Below are positions 20,620 through 64,000 of a stretch of 64,000 nucleotides of DNA, one piece after another (position 1 is the stretch's first letter; each line of letters starts with the position of its first letter). The translations under genes were made by a program, and so were the position numbers. The notes under the pieces were generated by a model. It was not told the origin of the DNA, ran no database searches, and was given only the letters and a program-made list of their open reading frames with translations. Source of the stretch: Stegostoma tigrinum (taxonomy: Eukaryota); NCBI RefSeq assembly GCF_030684315.1, contig NC_081397.1:5332001-5396000 (forward strand), in the 5' to 3' direction.

Positions 20620-21680
20620 TGGGTCCACCTCATCCATGGCAACCAGATATCCTAAATTAATCTCGTCCTATTTGCCAGGATTTGGCCCACATCACTCGAA
20701 GCCCTTCCGATTCATACACCCGCCCAGATGTCTTTCAAATGTTGTAGCTGGACTCAACTCCACCACTTCCTCTGGCAGTTCACTGCAATTCCACACCACA
20801 CTCTGTGAGCAAACATTGCCCACCGAAAGTTCCTTTCATATCGTGATTTTCTCATCCAAAACCCATGCCCTCTAGTGTTGGACTCCTACCCCTTGTGCAT
20901 AAGAACGTGATTATTCATGCTATCCATGCCCCTCTTAATTTTATATCTTCTATACAGTCACCATCGAGCCTCAGACACTTCATGGAAAACAAGCTGCAAA
21001 ACAAGCCACAATAAGCCCTGTCTATTCAGTCTCTCCCTGAAACTCAAACTTTCCAACTGTGGCAACATCCTTTTAAACATGTTCCTGACTCAGTCAAGTT
21101 GAACAACACCTTCCCTATTGCAAGGGGGCACCAGAACTGAATGCAGTATTTCAAAAGTCGTCTAACCAATCTTCTGTACAGTCACAACATCACCTCCCAA
21201 TCCTCAATATACACTGAATGCCCTGACCAATAAAGGCAATTGTATCAAACACCTTCTTCACTGCCCTGTCTCCCTGGAATTCCACTTTCAAGACGCTATG
21301 AGCCTGCATTCCATGGCCACTTAGTTTGACAACACTTCCCGAGAATTGACCATGAAGTGTGCAAGTCTTGCCCCGATTTTCTGTTACAAAATGTAGCACC
21401 TCACATTTGTCAAGATTAAACCCCAGCTGCCACTCCATAGCCCATTGGTCCTCTCGATCAAGGTCCTGTTGTAGTCTGAGGTCAGGCAGTCGTGCAGCAT
21501 GGACAAAGGCCCTTCAGCCCAAACTGGTTCATGCTGATCATGGTGTCCTCTCAGCTAATTCCAACTGCCCACATTTGGTCCATATCCCTCTAAAACCTAC
21601 TCTTTTTTTTAATGCTGCAATTGCACCTGCCTCAACAACTTTCTCTGGCAGCTGATTCCACATGTGCACCACTCCGCAAG
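20620..21680 (-). mobile_element. Degenerate CR1-like LINE fragments (mirror at ~63000-64000)
   Basis: WQLGFNLDKCEVLHF remnant. Confidence 0.75.
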
Positions 21681-21809
21681 GTCCTTCTTAAATCCCTCTG
21701 TTTTCTTGATAAACCTTCCTCACTCTCAAAACTACATCTTAATTTTGTATATTGGAAAACATACGAATCATGCCTTGTACATTCACATCAAGGCCACTTA
21801 TCACACAAT

Positions 21810-22100
21810 CATCGAATCCCTACTGTGTGGAAACAGGCCCTTTGGCCCAACAAGTCCATGCTGACACTCCGAGCATCCCACCCAGATCCATCCTGCTATA
21901 ACTCACCCAACACATCACTGAACACCACGGGAAAATTCCCATAGCCAACCCACTTAGTCTGCACATCTTTGAACTGTGGGAGGAAACCAGTGCACCCGGA
22001 GGAACATCATGCAGACATGGAGAGAATGTGCAAACTCCACACAGATAATCGCCTGAGGATGGAATTGAACCCGGATCCCCGGTGCTAACCACTGAGACAC
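21810..22100 (-). mobile_element. HE1/V-SINE-like SINE (mirror 62580-62880)
   Basis: B-box-like GGTTCAATTCC on the minus strand plus the conserved SINE core. Confidence 0.75.
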
Positions 22101-22124
22101 CGAAGTGCCCAACAAAGGTCACAG

Positions 22125-23430
22125 CACAAACCCCTGTGGCACACCACGAGTCACAGGCCTCCAGTCCGAGAAACAAGCTTCAACCATCACACTCTGCTTT
22201 CTACCATCGAGCCATTTTTGAATCAAATTAGCTAGCTCTCCCTGGATCCCTTGCAACTTAACCTTCATTACTAGTCTGCGTGGAGGACCTTGTCAAAAGC
22301 CTTACTAAAGACCATACAGACTACATCCACTGCCCTCCCATCATCTATCCACTTGGTTACTTCTTTGAAAAACTCAAAGATTTGTCACATGTGCCTTTCC
22401 GCACACAAATCCATTCCGACTATCCAAATGTTCATTGATCCTGTCACTCAGCATCCTTTCCAATAACTTGCTTACTGCTGGTGTTCGGCTCACTGGCTTG
22501 TCTTTCCTCCCTTTCATAAACAATGTAACAACTTTAGCCACCCTCCAGTCTTCTGGAACCTCGCCAGTGGCTAAAAATGAAGCTAAAATCTCTGCAAAGG
22601 AAGGGTCTCTGCAATTTCTTTCCTGGCTTCCCACAAAATCCGACATGGACACTATCAGAACTCGGAAATTCATCCACCTTAATATGATCTAAAGCTGCAA
22701 AGACACCCTTTCTGTTCATACAGATGCAGTCCAAAATATCTCTACTTCCTTCCCTTATTTCTTATAGGGATTATAGGGTGGCACAGTGGCTCAGTGGTTA
22801 GCTATGCAGCCTCACAGCACCAGGGACCCAGATTCGAATCCAGCCTCGAGCGACTGTCTGTGTGGAGTTTACACATTCTCCCTGTGTCTGCGTGGGTTTC
22901 CTCCGGGTGCTCCGGTTTCCTCCCACAGCCCAAAGATGTGTAGGTTAGGTGGACCGGACATGCTAAATTGCCTGTCGTGTTCGGAGTGTGTGGGTTAGAG
23001 GGGGATGGGTCTGGGTGGGAAGCTTGAAGGGGTGGTGTGGACTTGTTGAGCCGAGGGGCCTGTTTCCACACTGTAGGGAATTAATCTCATTTCCTGAGCA
23101 TCCATGATTCTCTCCTCAGCAAACACTGAGGAGAAATATTCATTAAAAATCCTCCCCTTCTGCTGTGGCTCCACACATGGACCACCATCCTGATCTTAAA
23201 GGGGTCCTCCTCTCCCCAGCCAACCTTTTATGCTTATTATAACTATGGAGCCTCTGGGGATTATCTGTAACCTTTCATGCCAGATCCATTTCATGACATA
23301 TTTTTGCTCTTCTGATTTCCCTCTTGTGTGCTTCTCCACTTTTTATAGTTATCTAGGGATTCACTTGAGCCTGATAGTTTAAACCCAATGTCTGCCTTCT
23401 TCCCTTTCCTGACCAGATCTTCAATGTCGC
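22125..23430 (-). mobile_element. Degenerate CR1-like ORF2 fragment interrupted by a SINE (mirror ~61230-62560)
   Basis: LATGEVPEDWRVAKVVTLFMKGRKDKP...GFVCGK remnant. Confidence 0.75.
22775..23085 (+). mobile_element. Full-length tRNA-derived SINE (HE1/V-SINE-like; mirror 61560-61875)
   Basis: A box TGGCTCAGTGG, B box GATTCGAATCC, V-SINE-like core, LINE-like 3' tail GGGCCTGTTTCCACACTGTAGGG. Confidence 0.85.
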
Positions 23431-24060
23431 TTGATATTTCAGGTTATCTGCCTCTGTCATTTCTGTTGTCCAAAAGAGTGGCATTATTAGTCTGTACCTT
23501 TCAATCTGTGCTCTGTGAATGTGTGAGTGTAGTTCTCATTCCATGCCTGACAGTTTCTCCAAGAAAATGCATGAGTGTTGTTACTCGTACCTACATGTCC
23601 ATTCGGTGGTATCAATGTAAGAGTGCAGGCATTAGTCTGCACATGCCAATTTCTGCTCCGTCAATATGCGAGTTTAGTTTCTGTTAGGCAGATGTGAGAA
23701 TGTAGTTGTCACAATGTACCTGGGAGACTTTGATCTCTGACCATTTGAGTTCAGTTGTCACACTGTACCTGCCAGTTTTTAGTTTGTGAAAAAGAGAGTG
23801 TGGTTTTAAATCTGTGACTGTCAGTTTCTCCTAAGTGAGTTTGTTTGTACAATTATCAGTATATTCCTGAAAGATTCTGTTGCATGAATGTGTAATTGTA
23901 GTTATCAATCCGTCCATATCAGTCTTTGATGTGTGAAATTATGAGAGGATGTACTAATTTTTCCCCATCCGTCTTCTGTCTTGTGAAAATGGGTGTTTAG
24001 TTATCAAGCTGTTTATTTTCATATGTGCTCTGCGAATGTTTGGCAGCAGTTATCACTATC

Positions 24061-25530
24061 TCAGGAGCACAAAAACTGATGTTTTGGGCCTAGATCCTTC
24101 ATCAGAGAGGGGGATGGGGAGAGGGAACTGGAGTCAATAGGGAGAGAGGGGGAGGCGGACCAAAGATGGAGAGAAAAGAAGATAGGTAGAGAGGAGAGTA
24201 TAGGTGGGGAGGTAGGGAGGGGATAGGTCAGTCCAGGGAAGACGGACAGGCCATGGAGGTGGGATGAGGTGGTCGGTAGGAAATGGGGGTGCGGCTTGAG
24301 ATGGGAGGAATTGATTGGTGAGAGGAAGAACAGGTTAGGGAAGCAGAGACAGGTTGGGCTGGTTTTGTGGTGCAGTGAGGGGAGAGGAAGAACTGGGCTG
24401 GTTTTGGGAAGCAGTCGGGGAAGGGAAGATTTTGAAGCTTGTGAAGTCCACGTTGATACCATTGGGCTGCAGGGTTCCCAAGTGGAATATGAGTTGCTGT
24501 TCCTGCAACCTTTGGGTGGCATCATTGTGGCACTGCAGGAAGCCCATGATGGATATGTCGTCTGAGGAATGGGAGGGGAATCTGAAATGTTTCGCAACTG
24601 GGAGGTGCAGTTGTTTGTTGCGAACCGAGCGGAGGTGTTCTGCAAAATGGGCCCCAAGCCTCCGCTTGGTTTCCCCAATGTAGAGGAAGTCACATTGGGT
24701 GCAATGGATACAATATACCACATTGGCAGATGTGCAGGTGAACATCTGTTTGATATGGAAGGTCATCCTGGGGCCTGGGATGGGGGTGAGGGAGGTGTGT
24801 GGGGCAAGTGTAGCACTTCCTGCGGTTGCAGAAGAAGGTGTCTGGTGTGGTGTGGTTGGAGGGGAGTGTGGAGCGGACAAGGGAGTCGTGGTGAGAGTGG
24901 TCTCTCCAGAAAGAGACAAGGGTGGGGATGGAAAAATGGCTTGGGTGGTGGGGTCAGATTGTAGATGGCGGAAGATTCGAAGGATGATATGTTGTATCCA
25001 GAGGTAGGTGGGGTGGTATGTGAGGATGAGGGGGATCCTCTGGGGTCCCCCAACTGTAACCCAAAACCAGCCCAGTTCTTCCCCTCCCCCCCACTGAATC
25101 ACAAAACCAGCCCAGCTCATCCCCTCTCCCCACTGCAATCCCAAAACCAGCCCACCCTGTCTCTGCTTCCCTGACCTGTTCTTCCTCTCACCCATCCCTT
25201 CCTCCCACCTCAAGCCGCACCTCCATCTCCTACCTACCACCTCATCCCGCCTCCTTTACCTGTCCATCTTCCCTGGACTGACCTACCCCTCCCCACCTCC
25301 CCACCTGTACGCTCCTCTCTACCTATCTTGTTTTTTCTGCATCTTCGGTCCACCTCCCCCTCTCTCCCTATTTATTCCCGTTCCATCTCCCCATCCCCCT
25401 CTCTGATGAAGGGTCTGAGCCCGAAACGTCAGCTTTTGTGCTCCTGAGATGCTGCTTGGCCTGCTGTGTTCATCCAGCTCCACACTTTGTTGTCTTGGAT
25501 TCTCCAGCATCTGCAGTTCCCATTATCACA
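24061..25530 (-). mobile_element. PLE (Neptune-type) 3' fragment with GIY-YIG endonuclease and inverted terminal repeats (mirror 59198-60592)
   Basis: RIPLILTYHP...FTCTSANVVYCIHCTQCDFLYIGETKRRL..HFAEH...EQQLIFHLGTLQPNGIN; termini ~24061-24420 and ~25055-25530 are inverted. Confidence 0.9.
25401..25432 (+). ncRNA. Minimal hammerhead ribozyme motif in a PLE terminus (intact core)
   Basis: ct-CTGATGA-a-GGGT(ctga)GCCC-GAAA-C-GTC-ag: CUGAUGA and GAAA boxes, stem II, palindromic ACGT and a GUC cleavage triplet. Confidence 0.75.
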
Positions 25531-26261
25531 TCACTCTGTATCTGTCAGGTTCTGCTTGATGAATAAATTTTCAGTCTATCCATGGCAGTTTCTGTTATAA
25601 GAATGTCAGAGTTTAGTATCACTCTGTTTCTGCCAGGCTCTGTGATGTCAACGTCTGAACGCTGTTATCAGTTCTTGCACTGTCAGTTTCTGCAACTGTG
25701 TGTATGTGAGTGTGGTTGTCAATTTATACCTGCCATTTTCTGGTATGTGAATATGAGAGTTTGAATATTAAACAGTGCCTGCCAGCTTCTGATGTGTCAA
25801 TATTTGAGTGCAGTTATCAATCTGTTCCTGTGATAACAGGAACTGCAGATGCTGGAGAATCCAAGATAACAAAGTGTGGAGCTGGATGAACACAGCAGGC
25901 CAAGCAGGGTCTCAGGAGCTGCTTGGCCTGCTGTGATTGTCCAGCTCCACACTTTGTTATCAATCTGTTCTTGACAGTCTCTGCTATGCAATAGGTGGGA
26001 TTGAAGCTGTTTGTCATTGTCAGCATTTACGGTGTGAATGTATGAGGGTAGTTATCTATCCGTACCTGTTTGTTGCAGCTGACAAGATAACGTGAATGCA
26101 GTTACCAGTCAATGCGAGTCAGTTTCTGCTATGTTAATACATGAATTTAGTTATCAGTCTATGCCTGTGTGTTCCTGTTCTGTGAATGTATGACTGTGAT
26201 TATCAGTCTCTAGCTCAAAGATTCCTCAATGTGAATACGTGAGTTTAGTTATCGATCTGTA

Positions 26262-27445
26262 CACCGGACCTGAAATGTTAACTCTGTTTTCTCCCTCACA
26301 GATGCTGCTGGACCTGCTGAACTTTTCCAGCAACTTTGCTTTTGTTCCTGATTTACAGCTTCCGCAGATAACAAGGGGTGGGGCTGGATGAACACAGCAG
26401 GCCAAACAGCATCTTAGGAGCATAATAGCTGACGTTTTGGGCCAAGACCCTTCATCAGAAAAAGGGGGAGGGGAAGAGGATTTTGAAATAAATAGGGAGA
26501 GAGGGGGAGGTGGACTGAGGATGGACAGAGGAGAAGATAGGTGGAGAGGAGAGTATGGGTGGGGAGGTAGGGAGGGGATAGGTCAGTCTGGGGAGGATGG
26601 ACAGGTCAAGGGGGCAGGCTGAGGTTAGGAGGTAGGAAATGGAGGTGCGGCTTGAGGTGGGAAGACGGGATAGGTGAGGGGAAGAACAGGTTAGGCAGGC
26701 GGGGATGAGCTGGGCTGGTTTGGGATGCAGTGGGGGGAAGGGAGATTTTGAAGCTGGTGAAATCCACATCGATACCACGAGGCTGCAGGGTTCCCAAGTG
26801 GAATATGAGTTGCTGTTCCTGCAACCGACGGGTGGGATCATTATGACACTGCAGGATGCCCATGTTGTCTAAGGAATGGGAGGGGGAGTTGAAATGATTC
26901 GCGACTGGGAGGTGTAGTTGTTTATGGCGAACCGAGCTGAGCTGTTCTGCAAAGCAGTCCCCAAGGCTCCGCTTGGTTTCGCCAATGTAGACAAAACCAC
27001 ACCGGGTACAGCTGATGCAGTATACCACATTGACGGATGGGCAGTGGAACATCTGCTTGATGTGGAAAGTCATCTTGGGGCCTGGGATTGGGGTTAGGGA
27101 GGAGGTGTGCGGGCAAGTGTAGCACTTCCTGCGGTTGCAGGGGAAGTGCCGGGTGTGCTGGGGTTGGAGGGGAGTGTGGAACGGACAAGGGAGTTGTGGA
27201 GAGAGTGGTCTCATCTGAAAGCAGACAAGGGTGGGGTAGTAAAAATGTCTTTGGTGGTCGGGTTGAATTGTAGATGGCTCAAGTGTCAGAGGATGATGCG
27301 TTGTATCCAGAGGTTGGTAGGGTGGGATGTGAGGACGAAGGGGGTTCTGTTTTGGCGGTTATTGCGGGGGCAGGGTGTGAGGAATGAGGCGCGGGAAATG
27401 TGGAAGACACGGTTGAGGGCATTGCGGACCGCTGCGGGGGGAGCA
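26262..27445 (-). mobile_element. PLE (Neptune-type) 3' fragment (mirror 57715-58900)
   Basis: CNRRKCYTC Cys-rich linker plus NVVYCISCTRCGFVYIGETKR GIY-YIG motif. Confidence 0.9.
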
Positions 27446-27974
27446 TCCGCAGTTCTTTCGGTTTTTATTTTGTCCGTTTATGCTGTGTGAAACACTGAGT
27501 GTGGGTATCTATATGGGCCTTTCAGTTTCTGATTTGTGGATGTATGAGTGCAGATTTACTTTGTACCTGTCAGTTTCTGCTCTGTAAATGTGAGAGCGTA
27601 GTTGACAACCTTGTCCTCACAGTTTGTGCCGTGTGAATGAATGCAGTTATGTATCTGTCTCTGCCACTTTCTGTTGTGAGAATGTGAGAGTGCAGGAATC
27701 AATCTGTACCACTCAGTTAATGCAAGTGGAATGAGGGAGTGTAGGTATCATGTACATGTCCGTGTTATCATCAACCTGTTCCTGTCAGTTTCTGCTATCC
27801 GGGTACCTGAGTATAGATGTCATTCTCTGTCAGTCAGTTTCTACTCAGTGAATATGTGTCTGAAATTATCAGTCTGTCCATGACACTGTTTTGCGATGTG
27901 AATGTTTAGTTATCAATCGCTCTCCGTCAATTTCAGTTTGGAGAGCCTGAGAGTGTAGTGATTACTTGTTTTAA

Positions 27975-28770
27975 TACATTCTGATCAGATACTCAACTAC
28001 AACAGCAATCATCCCAATATCTACTAATGGAGCTGCAACAAAACACTGTTCAAGTGAGCCACAACACACTGCAGCATCCAGAGCTGCGTAAAGATGAGGA
28101 AGAACACGATACAGTGACTATAGAAACGAAGGTTACCTGAAAAGCATTGTCCTTCGACACCTGCATAACAGACGACAAATGGATAACACAGCACGTCCAG
28201 AGACACTAGTCACCTGACCAAACATGAAAAACATATCAGAAATGAGCACCATATTGCCCCGAGCCAACAACCAGAACTGACAGAACCAACGTTATTTGCA
28301 CGATATCGTGCACAGATGCCAAAAACAGTACAAAGGCCAAACTGGTAGGAAACTAGCCATCATGATTCGTAGACACAAACTAGCTACCAAGAGACATGGC
28401 CAACTATCATTCATCTCAATGCACATGGACAAAGAGGGACACCAATTTGACTGGGACAACTTAGTTATCTGAGGAGAAGCCAACCAAAGACATGCACGAG
28501 ACTTCCTGGAGGCCTGACATTCAAACTGGAATGCCATTAACAAATGCGTAGAGCAGGATCCCATACACCAACCACTGAGAAACAAATCCAGAAGTGATGT
28601 CAGCCATCCCAGCAAACTGCAGCACATAAACAGCCACCAGGACACAACAGCAACGCATCACCAGAGGTGCACTGAAGGTATAATGTAGCTGGTGACAAAA
28701 TGTCTCTAAACAAGCAACAAGCTTGTTGAGCAATTCAACAACAGCATAGTTATTAATCTGACCCCAACGG
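27975..28770 (+). mobile_element. Second PLE family (Penelope/Poseidon-type), decayed (mirror ~56390-57190)
   Basis: Manual translation near 28320: QKQYKGQTGRKLAIMIRRHKLATKRHGQLSFISMHMDKEGHQFDWDN. A decayed hammerhead-like CTGAAGG...GACAAAATGTCT lies at ~28673-28706. Confidence 0.7.
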
Positions 28771-30379
28771 TTCATGCAATGCAAATGTGACAGCAGCTAT
28801 CATTGTGTAGCCGCCAGTTTCTGCAATTTGAATGTCACTGTTATCAATCTCTGAGTTTCTGCTTGGTGACCATGTGAGTGCAGTTATCAATAACGGCCTG
28901 TCAGCTTCTACTCTGTGAATATGAGAGTAGTTACCAAACTGTATCTGTCAGCTAATGCTTTGTGAAACTGGGAAGGCTGACTCCAGAATCTGCAGCTCTT
29001 GCTAGCTCTAAAGTGATCGTCAATCAGTTCCTATCAATTTCTTCTGTATGGATGTGTGCATGTAGAGCAACCTGTACCTATCAGTACCTCATAATTTGCA
29101 AGTAAAGTTATCAATATGTACCTGTGGGAATCTACTTTGTGAATATTTGAGTATAGTTGTCAAACTGTACCCGTCGGTATTTTTTAAATCTGTGGATATG
29201 CAGTTATAAAACTGTACCTGTCACTTTATGGTCTGTGAAATTGGGAGTTGTCATCAATATGTAGCTGCCAGTTTCTGCTGTGTGGATATGTGAAAGTAGT
29301 TATCGTTCAGTTGCTGTCAGTTTGCTATGTGAATGTGAGTGTTGTTTACTAACCTGTGTATCCCAGTTTCTATGATGTGAATGTGTGAATATCTTTATGA
29401 ATCTTTAGCTGTCGGTTTCTGCAATGTCAATATGTGAGTCTCGTCATCCTTTTTCTTTTGTATGCATTTGCAATACAAATGAGTGAGGTTAGGCATCAAT
29501 CCATACTGGTCATTTTCTACTTGTAAAAGTGGCTTAATTGTCAGCAGCCAGTAATATTCTTAGTGGAGGTATGATTCATTATGTGATAATTGCTAGTAGA
29601 GTAATTTTACATAGATTTCATTCAGATACTGAGTGTATAATTTCAGTTTATCCATCTTCAAAAATGGTGTAAAAGTCAATGGGTGATGAATGCTGAAATT
29701 TGTTGGAACTGTGTATGTGGAATGGAGAGATAAGAAAAATAAAGTTTAATTTCTCCAACCTTGTTCTCCTGTTGGAAAAATTTGAACATATCTGTTGGAA
29801 ATTAAGCTCACTGTGTGTCTGACTCAATCTGCTCTGTGACTGCGGAAAGGATGATCTCTGCTCTGACAGTGGGAACATCCCTGCTGTTTATCAGAAGGAT
29901 CTGCTCACAATTGCCTCTGCACTGAAGAAATCTTACTTTGTCTTGGTCTTTCAAGTGTTTTTTTTCTGTGGGAAGACAGAAGAGATAGTTCGTGTAAAGC
30001 AACATCAATTGGGTTTGACAATGTTAAACTGATCAACACAACATTTAGTTAATAATCATTTGGATATATTCATATAACTAGGAATTCTAACATAACTATG
30101 GGTCTTGATCCAATCTTGCCCTGAGCTGCTCCTTGTCTGATCATTTCTAAAAACTTCAACACCATTTGAATGAGCTCCTGAAAGTAAATGATACCTGTAC
30201 AGCTCCATGACTGGAACCACCCAGTGGAAGCTTGTCAGTGGATGTGAGTTTAGTTATTGATCTATTAATGTCAGTTGCTACTTGGTGAATGTGTGAGAGT
30301 AGTTATCAATGTGTCCCTCTAGGTCTTTGGTAATTATTCATGTATTACACAGCAGAGGCTGACAGGGACAGAATGATCA

Positions 30380-31580
30380 GGAATTATTGATCAATTAAAA
30401 TTATACAGCACAGAAGGTGGCCATTTGGCTCATTATATCCATGCTGACACAAACACCCCAAAATGGCCATCATAAAATCCGATCTTCTTGCAAACATCCC
30501 ATAGCCCTGCAGCTTGCAGACTGAATGTGGAGGTCCAGGTATGTTCTTACAAGAGTTGAGAATCTCTGCTATCAGCAACTCAGAAAGCGTATTTGAGATA
30601 AGCACCCTCTCATAAAAATGGTTTTCCTCCCATCATCTCTCATCGTCCTGCCACTTCACTTCATCTACACCCAATGGTTTTTAAACTCAATGCCAAGGGA
30701 AACAGATTCCCCCTGTCGACTCTATCACTGCCCATCCCAACTGCCTCAATCATGGCACTCCCAGCTTTCACTGTTCAAACTAATATAGCTCCAACCTCTG
30801 CAATCACTGCTCATAGCTATAACTCTCCAGCCATGGCAACATTCCAGTAAATCTTCTCTGCAATATATCCAGAGCAATAACGTTTTCCTGTAATGTGGTG
30901 ACCATCGCGGCGCACAATACATCAGTTCCAGCCTCACCAGTGTCTTACATAATTTCATCGTTATAGCCCGACTTTTGTGTTGTATACCTCTGCCAAAAAA
31001 GGACAGCATTCTATATACCTAGTTTCACAATCTCATCCACCTGTACTGCTATTTTCATACTCCATTACACTTGCACACCAAACCACTCATTTTATGTACA
31101 ATTTCCACACCACCTCATGTATTCCTATTTTGTGTCCTTGCACCTCCTGAAATGCATTACCTCACATTTATCAGAGTTGAACTCCATATGCCACTCATCT
31201 GCCCCTTCCACCAAAACTTCTATATCATTTTGGAGCTGACAGCTATCCTCTGCACTACCAGTACACTGTTAAATTTTTGTGCTGGCTGAAAATTTCCCAA
31301 TTGTATCCCCATGTTCAAGTCCAAGTTGTTATCATATAAAACAAACAGCAGAAGTCCCAACACTGAGCTGTGAGAAACACCACTTGAAACAGCTTTCGGT
31401 TTACAAGGGCAGCCATTGACCATTTGATTCCTGTTGCTAAGCAAACTTTGCTTCCAATTTAGCACATTGCTCCGTATCCCAAAAGCCTTTCCATTTCTGA
31501 TTCATCTGCTGCATGGTACTTTATCAAATGTCTTACTAAAATCCATGTAGTTAACGTGCATTGCACTATCCTCACACATT
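30380..31580 (-). mobile_element. Old CR1-like LINE fragment (mirror 53580-54780)
   Basis: SGVSHSSVLGLLLFVLY and KTLVRLELMYCAPRWSPHYRK remnants. Confidence 0.75.
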
Positions 31581-37216: not shown

Positions 37217-37298
37217 CTGTTGGTTGTTCGAAGGAGCTGGTCACCCTTGGCTTGGTACCAAGCACACATAACATTGTCTTGTTCCTGCAAGTGTTTTC
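37217..37298 (-). other. Exon-like module A, left-arm copy (82 bp)
   Basis: Minus strand reads ctgtcttcccccAG | ... CAG | GTATGT. Confidence 0.45.
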
Positions 37299-47531: not shown

Positions 47532-47613
47532 GAAAACACTTGGAGGATCAAGACAATGTAATGTGTGCTTGGTACGAAGCCAAGGGTGACCAGCTCCTTC
47601 GAACAACCAACAG
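47532..47613 (+). other. Exon-like module A, right-arm copy (82 bp)
   Basis: ctgtcttcccccAG | GAAAACAC...AACAG | GTATGT. Confidence 0.45.
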
Positions 47614-50600: not shown

Positions 50601-53117
50601 AGCAATATCACAATAGAACCGCCCTCACTTATATTTTGCAAAGATTGGTCAACAGTGTTTATTCTTCAGTAAATTCAGTTTGACGGTTCCAGTTGTGCCC
50701 AGTGAATGACAGAAATCAAAAGTTCAACATCGAGCATGTTAATGTCCGCGCCGTAAAACGAAATCCAAGTAAGAAAACTAATTTTCTTTCCTGCACAAGC
50801 AACATTGTGGTCAGTCAGCCGCAATGCAGTTGATTTGTTCATTGCACTTCCTCTTTGGCAATAACATACTAAATTCACATCTTTACTTTAGCAGCATTCC
50901 AAGACTTGTGTCACTATGCAATGTTGAATAATATTAATCTCATCCTGAAAATATCCTTTGATATCACCACAGCGGTTAGACTCTGCAATGTATCCTTGGC
51001 AAAGGTCCATTGCTTCTCTGTCCTCAACTCTGAAGAAAAGCACAGACTCATTTCAGTTGCAATGCCTTGCATTTTCACTTGCTTATAAATGCTGGAGACA
51101 CAAACAACTGAAGAACATAGGCTGTTTCACATTTGCGAAAGAAGAGATGAACCGAAAACTCTGTTCTCTGCCATGGTGGTAATTGGCTCTCCACTTTACA
51201 AGAAATACTTAATCTGCTCAGTAATGCAATACAGGAAGATAGAAATAGGATCAATTGAGTGGATCCGTCTGTCTTGTTTCATAACAGCAGCTCTTGTGCC
51301 AATACACAGTAGGAACAGAATAACTTAAAGTGTGGAGATGCTGCCAGGTTAGTAGATACCCAGGCAAAAACAAAAGAAAATGCCATTTCTCTTAAATATC
51401 ACATGGGTGGGAGAGCTCCCCTTTCATTATGCATGAATAGGACAGGGTAAGAGCGAAGTACTTCAATCCCAGTATGTGAATACTTTCCTTGAGGATTAAG
51501 TATGAGGTATCAGCTTGGCATAAAGTAAATTAGTCATGTTCACTACATCAGAAAATACTGAATCGATTGCATGATCAATGATGAATTCTACTGAAACAGC
51601 TCAAGAAGTAAATTGAAATCCAGATTAAATATGCCTCCAAATATCACACCATGTCTTAGATTTGGACACTTAACTAGTGCATCAATTTCCTTTGTTGAAA
51701 CTGAAGGAAATATATAGTAGGCCAAGTTTAAAATGAAATAAACATTACAATTTAATTTGCTTCCAATGAGGTACAAATTAAAAAGCAGCTCTCATCTCGT
51801 GCAGAAGTACTGCATAACGATGTTGTTAAATGGACCAAAGAAGAAAGCAAATGGGGTCATGAACAGATACAGATAACTGGAGTTTATTGGAAATAGATTG
51901 AAGAAACGCTGATCTCATGATCTTGTTACAGGAGGAATAAATACACATTCAGTTTTTGAGTGACTGACCAATCCAGAACAAAACTTACTATCATAAACCG
52001 GACAGTAACCAAACTGCATCTACAGAGTCAGAGACTGACAAAGGTATTAAAACAGTTTAATTTACATGATCTGATTATATGGCATTGGGTAAAATCTCAT
52101 TCATGTTGAGCAGCAGAGATTTGAACAATAGAAGAATGTCAGCAGTTCCTACAAGTAACATTTTCAATGCAACATTACCCACTCATTACCCATGTGAAAG
52201 ATGATGAAAATGCATGAGGAATACATTGACACACAATGCCAGAGACTGACTTGATGCCATGCTGACTGTCAGCCCGACGCTAATGAAAACCAACAGTAAC
52301 CACACTTATAATCTCAGTGGGAGACTGACTATTTCAGAAGAATGCCCACACTCTCTCTATGATTAATGTATTATAAATTAGTGTTATAATGATATAATAA
52401 TTTATAATACACCTCATAAAGGGAATCAAATCATACATGCAGAGCGAGAAACACAAGCAGACATTTGGAAAAGGACAGTGTCACTTTGCCCAATACCCAT
52501 CTTTAATTCAGATTGGCACCTCATTAGAAATCTCCCTCTCTTACAACAAACAGATGCTGAAAGGAAAGAAATGAAATTGATACCTCTGGTCGGCATGGAC
52601 TGTTGGACCAAAGGTCTGTTTCCCAGATGGACTTTGACAATATTGCTGCACTCTCATATTCACAAAGCAGAAACTGATCAGAAGAAACTCACAGTAACAC
52701 TCCCAAGCCGCATGAGGCATAAAATGGCATAACAAGGCAGTTATATTCACAGAGTAGAATCTGATAGGGGGAAATAACAATTATATTTCCATATTTAAAT
52801 CACAGAAACTGATTGGAAAGGGTTTACAACTGCACTTAAACATTCACACTGCAGGTAATGACAGGGACAGATTGATAACAACGTCCGTATATGCACGTAG
52901 CCAAGAATGATCGGTAGAAATAGATAACTGTGTTCTCATATTCATGGAGAGGAAAGCATTACAAATTCATAACTGCATTTATATATTCACATCACAAAAA
53001 CTGATAGTTGCAGATGAATAACTACATTCTCAGGTTCCCAGAGCAGACGTGGACAGATGCAGATTGAAATTTGCACTCAAATATTCACGTTGCATGTTCA
53101 CACATCATTATCAACAG

Positions 53118-53432
53118 AGATAGAGTTGATAGCCAGAGACTATTTCCCAGGGCAGAAATGGCTAGCACGAGGGGTCAGAGTTTTAAGCTGGTTGGTGGAA
53201 AGTATAGAGGGGATGTCAGAGGCAGGTTATTTACGCAGAGAGTTGTGAGAGCATGGAATGCGTTGCCAGCAGCAGTTGTGGAAGCAAGGTCATTGGGGTC
53301 ATTTAAGAGACTGCTGGACATGTATATGGTCACAGAAATTTGAGGGTGCATACATGAGGATCAATGGTCAGCACAACATTGTGGGCTGAAGGGCCTGTTC
53401 TGTGCTGTACTGTTCTATGTTCTATGTTCTAT
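53118..53432 (+). mobile_element. Recent CR1 LINE 3'-end insertion, right arm only
   Basis: Nearly identical to the 3' end of the 6697-7800 element, with a (TTCTATG)n tail; the empty site is at ~31730 in the left arm. Confidence 0.9.
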
Positions 53433-55196
53433 TAATTACAAAACTCACATCTGTATAACACAAATAGACACTGATTGCTGTGTGAAGGTGCAATTGTATT
53501 TTTCAATCAGTCCCTGTCAGTTTTCACAATGTGGATGTGTGATTTTAGTTATCAATCAATACCTGTCAGTGAATGCCACGTGAATGTGTGAGGATAGTGT
53601 AATGCATGTTAACTACATGGATTTTAGTAAGACATTTGATAAAGTACCATGCAGCAGATGAATCAGAAATGGAAAGGCTCATGGGATACAGAGCAATGTG
53701 CTAAATTGGAAGCAAAGTTTGCTTAGCAACAGGAATCAAATGGTCAATGGCTGCCCTTGTAAACCGAAAGCTGTTTCAAGTGGTGTTTCTCATAGCTCAG
53801 TGTTGGGACCTCTGCTGTTTGTTTTATATGATAGCAACTTGAACTTGAACATGGGGATACAATTGGGAAATTTTCAGCCAGCACAAAAATTTAACAGTGT
53901 ACTGGTAGTCCAGAGGATAGCTGTCAGCTCCAAAATGATATAGAAGTTTTGATGGAAGGGGCAGATGAGTGGCATATGGAGTTCAACTCTGATAAATGTG
54001 AGGTAATGCATTTCAGGAGGTGCAAGGACACAAAATAGGAATACATGAGGTGGTGTGGAAATTGTACATAAAATGAGTGGTTTGGTGTGCAAGTGTAATG
54101 GAGTATGAAAATAGCAGTGCAGGTGGATAAGATTGTGAAACTAGGTATATAGAATGCTGTCCTTTTTTGGCAGAGGTATACAACACAAAAGTAGGGCTAT
54201 AACGATGAAAGTATTTAAGACACTGGTGAGGCTGGAACTGATGTATTGTGCGCCGCGATGGTCACCACATTACAGGACAACGTTATTGCTCTGGATATAT
54301 TGCAGAGAAGATTTACTGGAATGTTGCCAGGGCTGGAAAGTTATAGCTATGAGGAGTGATTGCAGAGGTTGGAGCTGTATTATTTTGAACAGTGAAAGCT
54401 GGGAGTGCCATGATTGAGGCAATTGGGATGGGCAGAGACAGAGTCGACAGGGGGAATCGGTTTCCCTTGGCATAGAGTTTAAAAACCATTGGGTGTAGAT
54501 CAAGTGAAGTGGCAGAACGATGAGAGATGATGGGAGGAAAACCATTTTTATGAGAGGTTGCTTATCTCAAATACGCTGCCTGAGTTGCTGATAGCAGAGA
54601 TTCTCAACTCTTGTCAGAACATACCTGGACCTCCACATTCAGTCTGCAAGCTGCAGGGCTATGGGATGTATGCAAGAAGATCGGATTTTATGATGGCCAT
54701 TTTGGGGTGTTTGGGTCAGCATGGATATATTGAGCCAAATGGCCACCTTCTGTGCTGCATAATTTAAATTGATCAATAGTTCGTGATCATTCTCTCCCTG
54801 TCAGCCTCTGCTGTGTAATACATGAATAATGACCAAAGACCTCGAGGGACACGTTGATAACTACACTCACACATTCACCAAGTAGCAACTGACATGAATA
54901 GATCAATAACTAAACTCACATCCACTGACAAGCTTCCACTGGGTGGTTCCAGTCATGGAGCTGTACAGGTATCATTTACTTTCAGGAGCTCATTCAAATG
55001 GTGTTGAAGTTTTTTGAAATGATCAGACAAGGAGCAGTCAGGGCAAGATTGGATCAAGACCCATAGTTATGTTAGAATTCCTAGTAATATTAATATATCC
55101 AAATGATTATTAACTAAATGTTGTGTTGATCAGTTAAACATTGTCAAACCCAATTGATGTTGCTTTACACGAACTATCTCTTCTGTCTTCCCACAG

Positions 55197-55280
55197 AAAA
55201 AAACACTTGAATGAACAAGACAAAGTAAGATTTCTTCAGTGCAGAGGCAAGTGTGCCCAGATCCATCTGATAAACAGCAG
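55197..55280 (+). other. Exon-like module B (84 bp), paralog of module A
   Basis: ctcttctgtcttcccacAG | ... CAGCAG | GTATGT; the left-arm counterpart (~29880-29965) has GG in place of the donor GT. Confidence 0.4.
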
Positions 55281-58200
55281 GTATGTTCCCACTGTCAGAG
55301 CAGAGAACATCCTTTCCGCAGTCACAGAGCAGATTGAGTCAGACACACAGTGAGCTTAATTTCCAACAGATATGTTCAAATTTTTCCAACAGGAGAACAA
55401 GGTTGGAGAAATTAAACTTTATTTTTCTTATCTCTCCATTCCACATAGACAGTTCCAACAAATTTCAGCATTCATCACCCATTGACTTTTACACCATTTT
55501 TGAAGATGGATAGGCTGAAATTATACACTCAGTATCTGAATGAAATCTACGTAAAATTACTCTACTAGCAATTATCACATAATGAATCACACCTCCACTA
55601 AGAATATTACTGGCTGCTGACAATTAAGCCACTTTTACAAGTAGAAAATGACCAGTATGGATTGATGCCTAACCTCACTCATTTGTGTTGTAAATGCATA
55701 CAAAAGAGAAAGGATGACGAGACTCACATATTGGCATTGCAGAAACCGACAGCTAAAGATTCATAAAGATATTCACACATTCACATCATAGAAACTGGGA
55801 TACACAGGTTAGTAAACAACACTCACATTCACATAGCAAACTGACAGCAACTGAACGATAACTACTTTCACATATCCACACAGCAGAAACTGGCAGCTAC
55901 ATATTGATGACAACTCCCAATTTCACAGACCATAAAGTGACAGGTACAGTTTTATAACTGCATATCCACAGATTTAAAAAATACCGACGGGTACAGTTTG
56001 ATAACTATACTCAAATATTCACAAAGTAGATTCCCACAGGTACATATTGATAACTTTACTTGCAAATTATGAGGTATTGATAGGTACAGGGTGCTCTACA
56101 TGCACATATCCATACAGAAGAAATTGATAGGAACTGATTGACGATCACTTTAGAGATAGCAAGAGCTGCAGATTCTGGAGTCAGCCTTCCCAGTTTCACA
56201 AAGCATTAGCTGACAGATACAGTTTGGTAACTACTCTCATATTCACAGAGTAGAAGCTGACTGGCTGTTATTGATAACTGCACTCACATGGTCACCAAGA
56301 AGAAACTCAGAGATTGATAACAGTGACATTCAAATTGCAGAAACTGGCGGCTACACAATGATAACTGCTGTCACATTTGCATTGCATGAACCGTTGGGGT
56401 CAGATTAATAACAATGCTGTTGTTGAATTGCTCAACAAGCTTGTTACTTGTTTAGAGACATTTTGTCACCATCTACATAATACCTTCAGTGCACCTCTGG
56501 TGATGTGTTGCTGTTGTGTCCTGCTGGCTGTTTATGTGCTGCAGTTGACTGGGGTGGCTGACATCACTTCTGGATTTGTTTCTCAGTGGTTGGTGTATGG
56601 GATCCTGCTCTACGCATTTGTTGATGGCATTCCAGTTTGAACGTCAGGCCTCCAGGAATTCTTGTGCATGTCTTTGGTTGGCTTGTCCTCAGATGATTAA
56701 GTTGTCCCAGTCAAATTGGTGTCCCTCTTTGTCCATGTGTATTGAGATGAGTGATAGTTGGCCATGTCTCTTGGTAGCTGGTTTGTGTCTACGAATCATG
56801 ATGGCTAGTTTCCTACCAGTTTGGCCTGTGTACTGCTTTTGGCATCTGTGCACGATATCGTGCAAATAACATTGGTTCTGTCAGTTGTGGTTGTTGGTTC
56901 GGGGCAATATGGTGCTCATTTCTGACATGTTTTTCATGTTTGGTCAGGTGACTAGTGTTTCTGGACGTGCTGTGTTATCCATTTGTCGTCTGTTGTGCAG
57001 GTGTCGAAGGACAATGCTTTTCAGGTAACCTTCGTTTCTATAGTCACTGTATCGTGTTCTTCCTCAGCTTTACGCAGCTCTGGATGCTGCAGTGTGTTGT
57101 GGCTCACTTGAACAGTGTTTTGGTGCAGCTCCATTAGTAGATATTGGGATGATTGCTATTGTAGTTGAGTATCTGATCAGAATCTATTAAAACATGTAAT
57201 AACTACACTCTCAGGCTCTCCTAACTGAAATTGACAAAGAGCGATTGATAACTAAACGTTCACATAGCAAAACAGTGTCATGGACAGACTGATAATTTCA
57301 GACACATATTCACTGAGTAGAAACTGACTGACAGAAAATGACATCTATACTCAGGTACCCGGATAGCAGAAACTGACAGGAACAGGTTGATGATAACATG
57401 GACATGTACATGATACCTGCACTCCCTCATTCCAATTGCATTAACTGAGTGGTACAGATTGATTCCTGCACTCTCACATTCTCACAACAGAAAGTGGCAG
57501 AGACAGATATATAACTGCATTCATTCACACGGCACAAACTGTGAGGACAAGGTTGTCACTACGCTCTCACATTTACAGAGCAGAAACTGACAGGTACAAA
57601 GTAAATTTGCACTCATACGTCCACAAATCAGAAACTGAAAGGCCCATATAGATACCCACACTCTCTGTTTCACACAGCATAAACGGACAAAATAAAACCC
57701 GAAAGAACTGCGGATGTTCCCCCCGCAGCGGTCGGCAATGCCCTCAACCATGTCTTCCACATTTCCCGCGCCTCATCCCTCACACCCTGTCCCTGCAATA
57801 ACTGTCAAAACAGAAACCCCTTCGTCCCCACATACCACCTTACCAACGTCTGGATACAACGCATCATCCTCCGACACTTGTGCCATCTACGATTCAACCC
57901 TACCACCAAAGACATTTTTACTACCCCACCCTTGTCTGCTTTCAGGTGAGACCACTCTCTCCACAACTCCCTTGTCTGGTCCACACTCCCGTCCAACCCC
58001 AGCACACCCGGCACCTTCCCCTGCAACCGCAGGAAGTGCTACACTTGCCCTCACACCTCCTCCCTAACCCCAATCCCAGGCCCCAAGATGACTTTCCACA
58101 TCAAGCAGATGTTCCCCTGCACATCCGTCAATGTGGTATACTGCATCGGCAGTACCCGGTGTGGTTTTGTCTGCATTGGCGAAACCAAGCGGAGCCTTGG

Positions 58201-61200
58201 GGACTGCTTTGCAGAACAGCTCCACTCGGTTCGCCATAAACAACTACACCTCCCAGTCGCGAACCATTTCAACTCCCCCTCCCATTCCTTAGACAACATG
58301 GGCATCCTGCAGTGTCATAATGATCCCACCCGTAGGTTGCAGGAACAGCAACTCATATTCCGCTTGGGAACCCTGCAGCCTCATGGTATCGATGTCGATT
58401 TCACCTGCTTCAAAATCTCCCTTCCCCCCACTGCATCCCAAACCAGCCCAGCTCGTCCCCGCCTGCCTAACCTGTTCTTCCCCTCACCTATCCCCTCTTC
58501 CCACCTCAAGCCGCACCTCCATTTCCTACCTCCTAACCTCAGCCTGCCCCCTTGACCTGTCCATCCTCCCCAGACTGACCTATCCCCTCCGTACCTCCCC
58601 ACCCATACTCTCCTCTGCACCTATCTTCTCCTCTGTCCACCTTCAGTCCACCTCTCCCTCTCTCCCTATTTATATCAAAACCCTCTCCCCTTCCCCCTTT
58701 TTCTGATGAAGGGTCTCGGCCCAAAACGTCAGCTATTATGCTCCTAAGATGCTGCTTGGCCTGCTGTGTTCATCCAGCCCCACACCTTGTTATCTGCGGA
58801 AGCTGTAAATCAGGAACAAAAACAAAGTTGCTGGAAAAGCACAGCAGGTCCAGCAGCACCTGTGAGGGAGAAAACCGAGTTAACATTTCAGGTCCGGTGT
58901 ACAGATCGATAACTAAACTCACGTATTCACATTGAGGAATCTTTGAGCTAGAGACTGATAATCACAGTCCTACATTCAGAGAACAGGAACACACAGGCTA
59001 GACTGATAACTAACTTCATGTATTAACATAGCAGAAACTGACTGGCATAGATTGGTAACTGCATTCACGTTATCTTGTCAGCTGCAACAAACAGGTACGG
59101 AGAGATAACTACACTCATACATTCACTCCGTAAATACTGACAATGACAAACAGCTTCAATCCCACCTATTGCATAGCAGAAATTGTCAAGAGCAGATTGA
59201 TAATAAAGTGTGGAGCTGGATGAACACAGCAGGCCAAGCAGCATCTCAGGAGCACAAAAGCTGACGGTTCGGGCCACAACCCTTCATCAGAGAGGGGGAT
59301 GGCGAGAGGGAACTGGAATAAATAGGGAGGCGGGGGGAGGCGGACCGAAGATGGAGAGAAAACAAGATAGGTGGAGAGGACAGTGTAGGTGAGGAGGTAT
59401 GGAGGGGATAGGTCAGTCCAGGGAAGATGGACAGGTCAACGACGTGGGATGAGGTGGTCAGTTGGAAATGGAGGTGTGGCTTGAGGTGGGAGGAAGGGAT
59501 TGGTGAGAGGAAGAACAGGTGAGGGAAGCAGAGACAGGCTGGGCTGGTTTTGGGATGCAGTGGGGGGAGGGGAAGAACTGGGCTGGTTTTGGGATGCAGT
59601 CGGGGGACCCCAGAGGATCCGCCTCATCCTCACATACCACCTCACCTACCTCTGGATACAACATATCATCCTCCGACTCTTCCACCATCTACAATCCGAC
59701 CCCACCACCCAAGCCATTTTTCCATCCCCACCCTTGTCTCTTTCCGGAGAGACCACTCTCTCCGCGACTCCCTTGTCCGCTCCACACTCCCCTCCAACCA
59801 CACCACACCCTGCACCTTCCCCTGCAACCACACAAAGTGCGACACTTGCCCCACGCACCTCCGCCACCCCCATCCCAGGCCCCAGGACCTTCCATATCAA
59901 ACAGATGTTCACCTGCACATCTGCCAATGTGGTTTATTGTATCCTTTGCACCCAGTGTGGCTTGCTCTACGTTGGAGAAACCAAGCGGAGGCTTGGGGAC
60001 CACTTTGCAGAACACCTCCGCTCGATTCGCAACAAACAACTGCACCTCCCAGTCGCGAAACATTTCAGGTCCCCCTCCCATTCCTCAGATGACATGTCCA
60101 TCATGGGCCTCCTGCATTGCCACAATGATGCCACCCGAAGGTTGCAGGAACAGTAACTCATATTCCGCTTGGGAACCCCGCAGCCCAATGGTATCAACGT
60201 GTACTTGACAAGCTTCAAAATCTCCCCTTCCCCGACTGCATCCCAAAACCACCCCAGTTCTTCCCCTCCCCACTCTGTATCACAAAACCAGCCCAACCTG
60301 TCTCTGCATCCCTAACCTGTTCTTCCTCTCACCAATCCCTTCCTGCCACCTCAAGCCGCACCTCCATTTCCAACTGACCACCTCATCCCGCCTCCTTGAT
60401 GTGTCCATCTTCCCTGAACTGACGTATTCCCTCCCTACCTCCCCACCTATACTCTCCTCTCTACCTATCTTCTTTTCTCTCCATCTTCGGTCCGCCTCCC
60501 CCCTCTCTCCCTATTTATTCCAGTTCCCTCTCCCCATCCCCCTCTCTGATGAAGGGTCTCGGCCTGAAACATCAGGTTTTGTGCTCCTGAGATACAGTGA
60601 TAACTGCTGCCAAACATTCGCAGAGCACGTATGAAAATAAACAGATTGATAACTAAACACCCATTTTCACAAGACAGAAGACTGATGGGGAAAAATTGGT
60701 ACGTCCTGTCATAATTTCACACAGCAAAGACTGATATGGACGGAATAATAACTACAGTTACACATTCATGCAACAGAATCTTTAAGGAATGTATTGATAA
60801 TTGTACAAACAAACTCACTTAGGAGAAACTGACAGTCTCAGATTTAAAACTACACTCTCTTTTTCACAAACTAAAAACTGGCAGGTACAGTGTGACAACT
60901 GAACTCAATAGTCACAGAACAAAGTCTCCCAGGTACATTGTGACAACTACATTCTCACATCTGCCTAACAGAAACTAAACTCGCATATTGACGGAGCAGA
61001 AATTGGCATGTGCAGACTAATGCCTGCACTCTTACATTGATACCACCGAATGGACATGTAGGCACGTGTAACAACACTCATGCATTTTCTTGGAGAAACT
61101 GTCAGGCATGGATTGAGAACTACACCCACACATTCACAGAGCACAGATTGAAATGTACAGACTAATAATGTCACATTTTTGGACAACAGAAATGACAGAG

Positions 61201-64000
61201 GTAGATGACCTGAAATATCAAGCGACATTGAAGATCTGGTCAGGAAAGGGAAGAAGGCAGACATTGGGTTTAAACTATCAGGCTCAAGTGAATCCCTAGA
61301 TAACTATAAAAAGTGGAGAAGCACACAAGAGGGAAATCAGAAAAGCAAAAAGATGTCATGAAATGGATCTGGCAGAAAAGGTTACAGATAATCCCCAGAG
61401 GGTCCATAGTTATAATAAGAGTAAAAGGTTGGCTGGGGAGAGGAGGACCCCTTAAAGATCAGGATGGTGGTCCATGTGTGGAGCCACAGCAGAAGGGGAG
61501 GATTTTTAATGAATATTTCTCCTCATGTTTGCTGAGGAGAGAATCATGGATGCTAAGGAAATGAGATTAATTCCCTACAGTGTGGAAACAGGCCCCTCGG
61601 CTCAACAAATCCACTCCACCCCTTCAAGCTTCCCACCCAGACCCAACCCCCTATAACCCACACACCCCTGAACATTACGGGCAATTTAGCATGTCCGGTC
61701 CACCTAACCTGCACATCTTTGGGCTGTGGGAGGAAACCAGAGCCCCCAGAGGAAACCCACGCAGACACGGAGAATGTGTAAACTCCACACAGACAGTCGC
61801 CCGAGGCTGGATTCGAATCTGGGTCCCTGGTGCTGTGAGGCCGCAGTGCTAACCACTGAGCCACTGTGCCACCCTATAATCCCTACAAGAAATAAGGGAA
61901 GGAAGTAGAGACATTTTGGACTGCATATGTCTGAACAGGAAGGGTGTCTTTGCAGCCTTAGATCATATTAAGGTGGATGAATTTCTGAGTTCTGATCGTG
62001 TCCATCTCGGATTTTGTGGGAAGCCAGTAAAGAAATTGCAGAGGCCCTTCCTTTGCAGAGATTTTAGCTTCATTTTTAGCCACTGGCGAGGTTCCAGAAG
62101 ACTGGAGGGTGGCTAAAGTTGTGACATTGTTTATGAAAGGGAGGAAAGACAAGCCAGGGAACTTCCAGCCAGTGAGCCTAACACAAGCAGTACGCAAGTT
62201 ATTGGAAAGGACGCTGAGTGACATGATCGATGAACATTAGGATAGTCAAGGTATGATTACGAATAGTCGGCATGGATTTGTGTGCGGAAAGGCACATGTG
62301 ACAAATCTTTGAGTTTTTCAAAGAAGTTACCAAGTGGGTAGATGAGGGGAGGGCAGTGGATGTAGTCTGTATGAACTTTAGTCAGGCCTTTGACAAGGTC
62401 CTGCACGCAGACTAGTAATGAAGGCTAGGTTGCAAGGGATCCGGGGAGAGCTAGCTAATTTGATTCAAAAATGGCTCGATGGTAGAAAGCAGAGTGTGAT
62501 GGTTGAAGCTTGTTTCTCGGACTGGAGGCCTGTGACTCGTGATGTGCCACAGGGGTTGGTGCTGTGACCTTTGTTGGGCACCTCGGTGTCTCAGTGGCTA
62601 GCACCGGGGATCCGGGTTCAATTCCATCCTCAGGCGATTATCTGTGTGGAGTTTGCATATTCTCTCCGTGTCTGCATGATGTTCCTCCGGGTGCTCCAGT
62701 TTCCGCCCACAGTTCAAAGATGTGCAGGCTAGGTGGGTTGGCTATGGGAATTTTCCCATAGTGTTCAGTGATGTGTTCGTTGGGTGAGTTATAGCAGGAT
62801 GGATCTCGGTGGGATGCTTGGAGTGTCAGCATGGACTTGTTGGGCCAAAGGGCCTGTTTCCACACAGTAGGGATTCGATGATTGTGTGATAAGTGGCCTT
62901 GATGTGAATGCACAAGGCATGATTCGTATGTTTTCCAGGATACAAAATTAAGATGTAGTTTTGAAAGTGAGGAAGGCTTATCAAGAAAATGGAGGGATTT
63001 AAGAAGGACCTTGCGGAGTGGTGCACATGTGGAATCAGCTGCCAGAGAAAGTTGTTGAGGCAGTTGCAATAGCAGTACTAAAAAAAAAGAAAGGATAAGT
63101 TTTAGAGGGATATGTCCAAATGGGGGCAATTGGAATTAGCTGAGAGGGCACCATGATCAGCATGAACCAGTTTGGGCTGAAGGGCCTTTGTCCATGCTGC
63201 ACGACTGCCTGACCTCAGACTACAACAGGACCTTGATCGAGAGGACCAATGGGCTATGGAGTGGCAGCTGGGGTTTAATCTTGACAAATGTGAGGTGCTA
63301 CATTTTGTAACAGAAAATCGGGGCAAGACTTGCACACTTCATGGTCAATTCTCGGGAAGTGTTGCCAAACTAAGTGGCCATGGAATGCAGGCTCGTAGCG
63401 TCTTGAAAGTGGAATTCCAGGGAGACAGGGCAGTGAAGAAGGTGTTTGATACAATTGCCTTTATTGGTCAGTGCATTCAGTGTATATTGAGGATCGGGAG
63501 GTGATGTTGTGACTGTACAGAAGATTGGTGAGACTACTTCTGAAATACTGCATTCAGTTCTGGTGCCCCCTTGCAATAGGAAAGGTGTTGTTCAACTTGA
63601 CTGAGTCAGGAACATGTTTAAAAGGATGTTGCCACAGTCGGAAAGTTTGAGTTTCAGGGAGAGACTGAATAGACAGGGCTTATTGTGGCTTGTTTTCCAT
63701 GGAGTGTCTGAGGCTGGGTGGTGACTGTGTAGAAGATATAAAATTAAGAGGCGCATGGATAGCATGAATAATCACGTTCTTATGCACAAGGGATAGGAGG
63801 CCAAAACTAGAGGGCATGGGTTTTGGATGAGAAAATCACGATTTGAAAGGAAACGGTGGGCAATGTTTGCTCACAGAGTGTAGTGTGGAATTGCAGTGAA
63901 CTGCCAGAGGAAGTGGTGGAGTTGAGTCCAGCTACAATATTTAAAAGACATCTGGGCGGGTGTATGAATAGGAAGGGCTTCGAGTGATGTGGGCCAAATG

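Follow-up and report, generated by a model that had tools for sequence, protein, structure and literature searches.

The DNA considered here is a stretch of 64,000 nucleotides from the zebra shark, Stegostoma tigrinum (NCBI RefSeq assembly GCF_030684315.1, contig NC_081397.1, positions 5,332,001 to 5,396,000 of the forward strand), referred to below as the window, in which two long inverted arms enclose an intact histone H1 gene beside a group of core histone genes. The inverted repeat is probably an old inverted segmental duplication within a large, partly ordered histone region, and not an actively homogenised palindrome. The evidence consists of the divergence between the arms, an older third copy of the arm module and one short element, X, in which the three copies can be compared.

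A self-BLAST of the window identifies positions 20680-38241 and 63999-46586 as colinear reverse complements in three minus-strand blocks. The components of the inverted repeat are as follows.

20680-25494 against 63999-59199, minus strand: arm block 1, 92.4% identity by self-BLAST.
25918-31728 against 59242-53434, minus strand: arm block 2, 96.5% identity by self-BLAST.
31732-38241 against 53117-46586, minus strand: arm block 3, 92.8% identity by self-BLAST.
20680..38241, minus strand: left arm (module copy L), with its true outer limit further left than 20680; it holds retroelement fragments, degenerate 49-bp satellite blocks, two exon-like segments and, at its inner end, element X.
38242..46585, no strand: spacer of 8.3 kb, with three Penelope-like pieces (38.3-40.4 kb), pieces of long interspersed nuclear elements (LINEs), the intact H1, a hairpin insertion and an H3-upstream remnant.
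45064..45702, plus strand: intact replication-dependent histone H1 of 212 amino acids, matching Pfam Linker_histone, with a stem-loop at 45734-45779.
46586..64000, plus strand: right arm (module copy R), the reverse complement of L at 95.1%, continuing past the window.

A global alignment of the two arms, trimmed at 38241, contains 827 mismatches in 16,982 aligned columns (95.1% identity) and 51 insertion or deletion (indel) events, with identity ranging from 90.0 to 98.4% per 500-column window. With this length and identity in opposite orientation, the pair falls under the term inverted segmental duplication, which we take to require at least 1 kb at 90% identity or more. The arms (at least 17.4 kb) also exceed the 8.3-kb spacer, the long-armed geometry of Y-type palindromes. 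Homology starts at 20680/63999, i.e. at the window's final bases, and the left limit of 20680 is therefore set by the window edge. The first-pass annotation had described colinear, non-identical inverted arms of at least 17 kb, with H1 central between them and homology still running at the edge some 640 bp short of the H2B start codon, and all three descriptions hold. Mirrored positions computed from this geometry put an H2B start at ~64,640, H2A at ~66,770 and H4 at ~69,580, all beyond the window end. The chance that a mirrored H2B-H2A pair lies past 64,000 is about even, because module L abuts the H2B promoter with no visible breakpoint, yet R may end or lead elsewhere.

The differences between the arms look biological and not assembly-made. 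In the arm alignment, sites in CpG context differ at 29.4%, against 3.5% at other sites, and two larger differences are confined to one arm each.

25473..25939, no strand: 467 bp present only in L, flanked by two direct copies of a retroelement terminal repeat.
53119..53431, no strand: 313-bp LINE 3' end present only in R, 92% identical to 6694-6998.

The 467 bp was most likely lost from R through recombination between the two direct terminal repeats, and the LINE 3' end entered R after the arms split. Mis-assembly is disfavoured because of the CpG-biased differences, the arm-specific retroelement insertion and the repeat-bounded deletion. An artefact in which two haplotypes, or a fold-back read, were wrongly joined would find a ready setting in a repeat-rich, multi-copy region, but it is extremely improbable: the arms differ by 4.9% substitutions, ~25 times the nucleotide diversity of 0.002 given for the related epaulette shark (PMC10587355), substitutions outnumber indels 16 to 1, and homopolymers account for only 6 of the 21 one-base indels.

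The second line of evidence is an older third copy of the module, A, at ~5.8-11.5 kb, which the first-pass annotation had overlooked together with an H1 3' remnant at 13580-13727. The succession from module A to the H1 remnant matches that from L to the intact H1 in both order and orientation. These features and the remaining histone genes are located as follows.

5840..11106, minus strand: older third module copy A, in direct orientation to L, with colinear blocks of 61-73% and same-strand 49-bp satellite.
13580..13780, plus strand: H1 remnant, comprising the last codons, a degenerate stem-loop and 3' flank, with the 5' part gone.
15098..15409, plus strand: intact histone H4, stem-loop 15435-15480.
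16288..16698, plus strand: intact histone H3, stem-loop 16736-16781.
17517..17909, minus strand: intact histone H2A, stem-loop 17447-17491.
19659..20039, minus strand: intact histone H2B, stem-loop 19574-19619.
46150..46525, plus strand: H3-upstream remnant, colinear with 15790-16290 and stopping about where the H3 ATG would be.

All five intact histone genes are single-exon open reading frames (ORFs) with a 3' stem-loop, i.e. of the replication-dependent type; three of the stem-loops reach the Rfam gathering score of 34, and those of H4 (33.1) and H3 (32.4) fall below it. The H1 remnant (13580-13727) is 84% identical over 149 bp to the end of the intact gene (45654-45802), and similarity extends further into the flank. 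With it, all five histone types stand in one unit, H1 remnant-H4-H3-H2A-H2B, at 13.6-20.0 kb. Searches of the window with tblastn and blastn find no other intact H1, in agreement with the earlier description of this gene as the only one, and with all five histones as queries they find no histone pseudogenes in the arms; beyond the intact genes they detect just the H1 end at 13.6 kb. On the other side of the spacer, 46156-46525 matches the DNA upstream of H3 at 67-71% identity (E 5e-11 and 4e-7), a match with which the global alignment agrees; no H3 coding sequence follows the remnant, and the polarity switch sits there.

The order along the window is thus module A, H1 remnant, H4, H3, H2A, H2B, module L, H1, H3-promoter remnant and inverted R. 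On sequence, this reads as decayed units of ~27-32 kb whose polarity switches once, near 46.5 kb. The repeat unit would consist of a non-coding module of ~18 kb followed by H1-H4-H3-H2A-H2B, and the second unit would be truncated, with H1 intact, H4 absent and only the H3 promoter remnant left, joined near 46.5 kb to the reversed R. The X-to-X spacing is 26.8 kb and the module copies are 61-73% alike outside X; with this spacing, the diverged copies, the truncated second unit and the switch of polarity, the window is not a homogeneous head-to-tail histone array with units of 3.7-13 kb. The locus had been called unlike simple tandem histone repeats, which holds for the polarity switch but not for the rest, since the window resembles a set of decayed tandem units, and histone clusters with inverted repeats are already on record (PMC9526256).

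The third line of evidence comes from element X, the only place where a third copy allows exchange to be polarised. It is present in each module copy.

11107..11476, minus strand: element X copy A, 97.0% identical to copy L, with a flank at 72.7%.
37870..38300, minus strand: element X copy L, CpG-rich and promoter- or first-exon-like, with a putative splice donor.
46540..46960, plus strand: element X copy R, more decayed than L (20 private changes as opposed to 5).

Sequence outside the putative donor places A as the outgroup: A and L agree at 80 of 110 positions (72.7%) and L and R at 105 of 110 (95.5%). Inside X, A and L are the closest pair, with 357 of 368 positions identical (97.0%) as compared to 342 of 367 (93.2%) for L and R, and the step across the donor is significant (Fisher p=6e-8). 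The longest identical run in X is 108 bp between A and L and 50 bp between L and R, and A carries 6 private changes. X copy A is probably a conversion tract between the direct copies A and L. The pattern suggests that direct copies exchanged sequence with each other, or with a near relative at another place in the array, and that R decayed. Selection as the sole cause of the A-L similarity is considered insufficient, given only 6 and 5 private changes in A and L though their flanks differ by 27%.

The main alternative is the model put forward in the first-pass annotation, [H4 H3 H2A H2B]-arm-H1-arm-[inverted quartet], an ampliconic palindrome whose arms are kept alike by ongoing arm-to-arm gene conversion. 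It has in its favour the inverted geometry, the central H1 and homology that continues at the edge, 640 bp before the H2B start would be reached, as well as significant heterogeneity along the arms, whose divergence is over-dispersed (permutation p=2e-4, with the same result without CpG sites and away from indels). In X, however, the left arm resembles the direct copy A more than it does the right arm, the arm-specific insertion and deletion persist, no protein gene is found in the visible arms, which may still share a non-coding gene pair, and the identity of 95.1% compares with 99.97% for Y palindrome P1 (PMC5816366). Nor do the arms reach identity of ~99.9% or more, at 95.1% overall and 98.4% in the best 500-column window. 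The sliding-window identity check proposed earlier for conversion tracts does reveal mosaic divergence, but the sole polarised tract joins A and L. With arms that differ by 4.9% and 51 indels, homogenisation by arm-to-arm conversion is unsupported as a current process, and the model as a whole is improbable. Some past exchange is likely, and it possibly included old exchange between the arms.

Several points weigh against an old duplication whose arms are no longer homogenised. The arms fall into strata of 95.9, 92.0, 96.6 and 92.5% identity, which is compatible with some arm-to-arm conversion, and two perfect runs, of 267 bp (p=0.02-0.03) and 216 bp (p=0.01), slightly exceed the segment expectation, with five segments and uncorrected p values. 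Selection on the promoter may add to the A-L likeness, because the similarity step falls at the putative splice donor. The unit reconstruction is drawn from about two copies, and the H1-to-module junction may, from database sequences considered below, be a recurring unit and not a single breakpoint. Dating is rough, because a genome-wide synonymous divergence (dS) is applied to non-coding, repeat-rich arms: whale and zebra shark have a median dS of 0.061-0.111 and split ~50 million years (My) ago (PMC13100897), and at this rate the corrected divergence of the arms, 0.050, corresponds to ~23-41 My, with 16-35 My for the younger arm blocks and 35-69 My for the older ones.

For the favoured old inverted segmental duplication, the following sequence of events can be proposed. 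Ectopic recombination or template switching among array repeats would have joined a truncated unit to an inverted module, an inversion that would have arisen some tens of millions of years ago. Patchy exchange among family members, for certain between direct copies and possibly between the arms, would later have made the mosaic, and the arms would have diverged independently since. Histone genes presumably turn over by birth and death. No function is seen for the mirror symmetry.

A further alternative holds that H1 flanked by opposed modules is a regular building block, and that the pair seen here is one of many in an array of alternating polarity. The relevant evidence comes from at least 14 different H1-containing proteins (14 accessions) that the database places on one 15.6-Mb chromosome-scale sequence, the presence of which limits the statement on the only intact H1 to the window. 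The exact window H2A and H2B proteins are recorded on what appears to be the sequence carrying these Stegostoma H1 models; the exact H1 is absent from the collection, in which its closest relatives are Stegostoma tigrinum H1-like proteins (96%), followed by those of whale shark (87-90%). The 14 models comprise 4 H1-H3 fusions, 7 with a foreign tail and 3 plain proteins. The fusions point to H1 followed by H3 on one strand. For each of the seven tails, the top five window matches by tblastn are the five exon-like copies of the module, with best scores of 30-35 bits as compared to at most 23.9 when one tail is shuffled 300 times.

These matches confirm, at the level of sequence, the module as a multi-copy part of the histone region, and several other loci therefore probably have module-family DNA on the H1 strand, downstream of the gene. 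The idea of a regular building block also draws on the head-to-head arrangement of module and H1, which is present twice in the window. Against it, the H1 remnant of the first unit leads into H4 with no module, identity between the tails and the window copies is no more than 31-55%, which indicates another subfamily, and the weaker tail matches (22-25 bits) overlap with the shuffled range. The tail evidence consists of automatic gene models, as proteins only, and the tail turned up in a single protein cluster (the one candidate of one), which is uninformative on its spread in other sharks. Taken together, a regular building block appears unlikely. Those RefSeq H1-like proteins that carry a foreign tail at the C-terminus or are fused to H3 are probably gene-model errors in which H1 is spliced into neighbouring DNA; the models concerned are P0001, P0181, P0183-P0187; P0007, P0008, P0018, P0188 and P0189.

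The module itself is rich in repeats, with 71% of the left arm matching non-mirror repeats within the window, and no protein-coding gene is found in the arms by Pfam analysis of 15 long ORFs or by protein searches with the ORF over element X. Two of the 15 ORFs match Pfam, namely H1 and one reverse transcriptase encoded elsewhere in the window, and an arm ORF matches GIY-YIG weakly, under the curated cut-off. The ORF over X has no match among 656 candidates (longer proteins only) and two weak multi-stretch matches (E 1e-5 and 8e-5) among 1.84 billion representatives. The repetitive features of the module, together with its exon-like segments, are listed below.

5840-6280, 7970-8400 and seven blocks per arm: degenerate 49-bp satellite.
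37215..37305, minus strand: exon-like segment with acceptor and donor signals and no common open frame.
Near 10.8 kb (minus), 29.9 kb (minus), 37.25 kb (minus), 47.6 kb (plus) and 55.25 kb (plus): the five exon-like copies.

The satellite has a top period of 49 in seven of nine blocks, 47 in one and 98 in one, and is overlooked by Tandem Repeats Finder; a zinc-finger origin of these repeats is ruled out by the 49-bp period. Scanning with a profile derived from units of the left arm and of 5.8-8.4 kb yields 129 hits, among them 58 on the minus strand in the left arm, 50 on the plus strand in the right arm and 13 on the minus strand in 1-11.5 kb; 121 of the 129 lie on the strand of element X. 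The X copies have CpG observed/expected ratios of 0.56-0.69, against 0.30-0.32 in the arms; copy L, at 0.69 against 0.30 in its arm, carries motifs at 38227 and 38279 that we take to be of NRF1 type. In a five-way alignment of the exon-like copies, an acceptor is present in all five and a GT donor in four, and no open frame is shared. From these signals, the module is best described as non-coding spacer DNA from which a spliced non-coding transcript may arise.

The 8.3-kb spacer between the arms has no mirrored counterpart but is not unique, as it had been called, since 56% of it matches sequence elsewhere in the window and its segment 46156-46525 matches H3-upstream DNA. Its left edge contains an inverted pair of retroelement terminal repeats (38372-38808 and 39119-39556, 95%). 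At 39679-39720 lies a 42-bp piece of element X flank (90% to copy A, 83% to copy L), hinting at a trace of another decayed module copy. The labels CR1-like, Penelope-like and short interspersed element (SINE) attached to retroelement pieces are our assumed class names, weakly supported at best.

Smaller features are also found throughout the window. Small hairpin elements, each made of two inverted retroelement terminal repeats, occur at 10872-10988, 19063-19230, 25865-25961 and 45799-45994; the last of these, just 3' of the H1 stem-loop, is missing from the flank of the H1 remnant and has a short direct duplication at its ends. Matches to microRNA families at ~19.1 kb score far under the gathering thresholds, sit on a small hairpin element and are rejected. 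No tRNA, 5S or snRNA genes are present in the window as a repeated passenger. At 1215-1373 and 1815-1973, a 159-bp inverted pair (96%) flanks a retroelement terminal piece (1369-1800). A short plus-strand segment at ~175-240 has an open frame as well as signals resembling an acceptor and a donor, and is perhaps an exon of a gene reaching left beyond the window. In the H2A-H2B intergenic region a short segment is repeated at 18104-18258, 18678-18823 and 19321-19372 (72-80% identity), perhaps as relics of duplicated H2A upstream DNA. The window H3 has Ala at mature position 101, at which the H3 portions of four database models on the 15.6-Mb sequence have Val, and is possibly a drifting copy.

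Inverted repeats in histone clusters are already known, and the structure alone is no surprise. The value of the locus is as one example of how histone clusters are built in cartilaginous fishes, which have been little described. Its array sits between ordered and jumbled: the units are long, some genes survive as remnants, polarity switches once and direct copies have exchanged sequence, and its decay would be slowed by the low substitution rate of sharks. In practical terms, where zebra shark H1 entries in databases have a foreign tail or are joined to H3, this architecture is probably the cause of the error.

The more interesting question concerns the promoter-bearing module as a regular partner of H1 across the array. 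A higher-order array can be envisaged in which histone units alternate with a multi-copy non-coding module that is spliced, bears a promoter and has its own 49-bp satellite. Placed on either side of H1 genes in opposite orientations, the module would create many H1-centred inverted repeats, and conversion would keep promoter and first exon alike across copies; this joint reading is speculative and rather doubtful. If true, it would be a type of histone-interspersed array absent from the categories in the available text of a review of 250 species, where histone-rRNA units come nearest (PMC13525598), and if the module is a transcribed non-coding gene tied to H1 array-wide, it would be a new kind of histone-repeat passenger.

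Published descriptions offer few direct counterparts. A literature search, with subscription journals mostly outside its coverage, finds no published shark histone palindrome. The main text of the zebra shark genome paper does not contain 'histon' (PMC10620051), and in the review of 250 species 'shark' and 'cartilaginous' are absent from the main text and five chondrichthyan terms from two supplements (PMC13525598). Among elasmobranchs, the red stingray has a large H1/H2A/H2B/H3 cluster on a smaller chromosome, chr 28, near tRNA loci (10.1101/2025.06.08.657570), but the shark window has no tRNA loci, and the main text of that preprint does not contain 'invert'.

With respect to array organisation, reported histone units measure 3.7-13 kb and vertebrate clusters are partly ordered (PMC13525598). 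The shark locus resembles tandem quartet and quintet arrays and their partly decayed vertebrate forms, such as that on chr 9 of Xenopus tropicalis, in having five gene types per unit, partial order and pseudogenes (PMC13525598), and differs from the reported 3.7-13 kb arrays in its unit of ~27-32 kb, long non-coding module, diverged copies and polarity switch. Its H2A and H2B genes, furthermore, stand in tandem on one strand and do not form a divergent pair.

With respect to the inverted repeat, human Y palindromes likewise combine long inverted arms with a short spacer, as in P8 with 38-kb arms and a 3.4-kb spacer (PMC6790999). The arms of P1, at 99.97% identity (PMC5816366), hold gene pairs, unlike the shark arms, which are 95.1% identical and have no gene found in them. 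Chicken histone genes also include inverted duplications within a vertebrate histone cluster (D'Andrea et al. 1985), a likeness by title alone, as cited in the supplement of PMC13525598. Mammalian histone cluster 2 (HIST2) presumably has near-identical arms, as compared to 95% in the shark. It shares with the shark locus a large inverted repeat inside a replication-dependent histone cluster, and is possibly prone to rearrangement (10.1101/720235); it differs in that its repeat contains the core histone genes and no H1, whereas the visible shark arms are non-coding and H1 lies in the spacer (PMC9526256).

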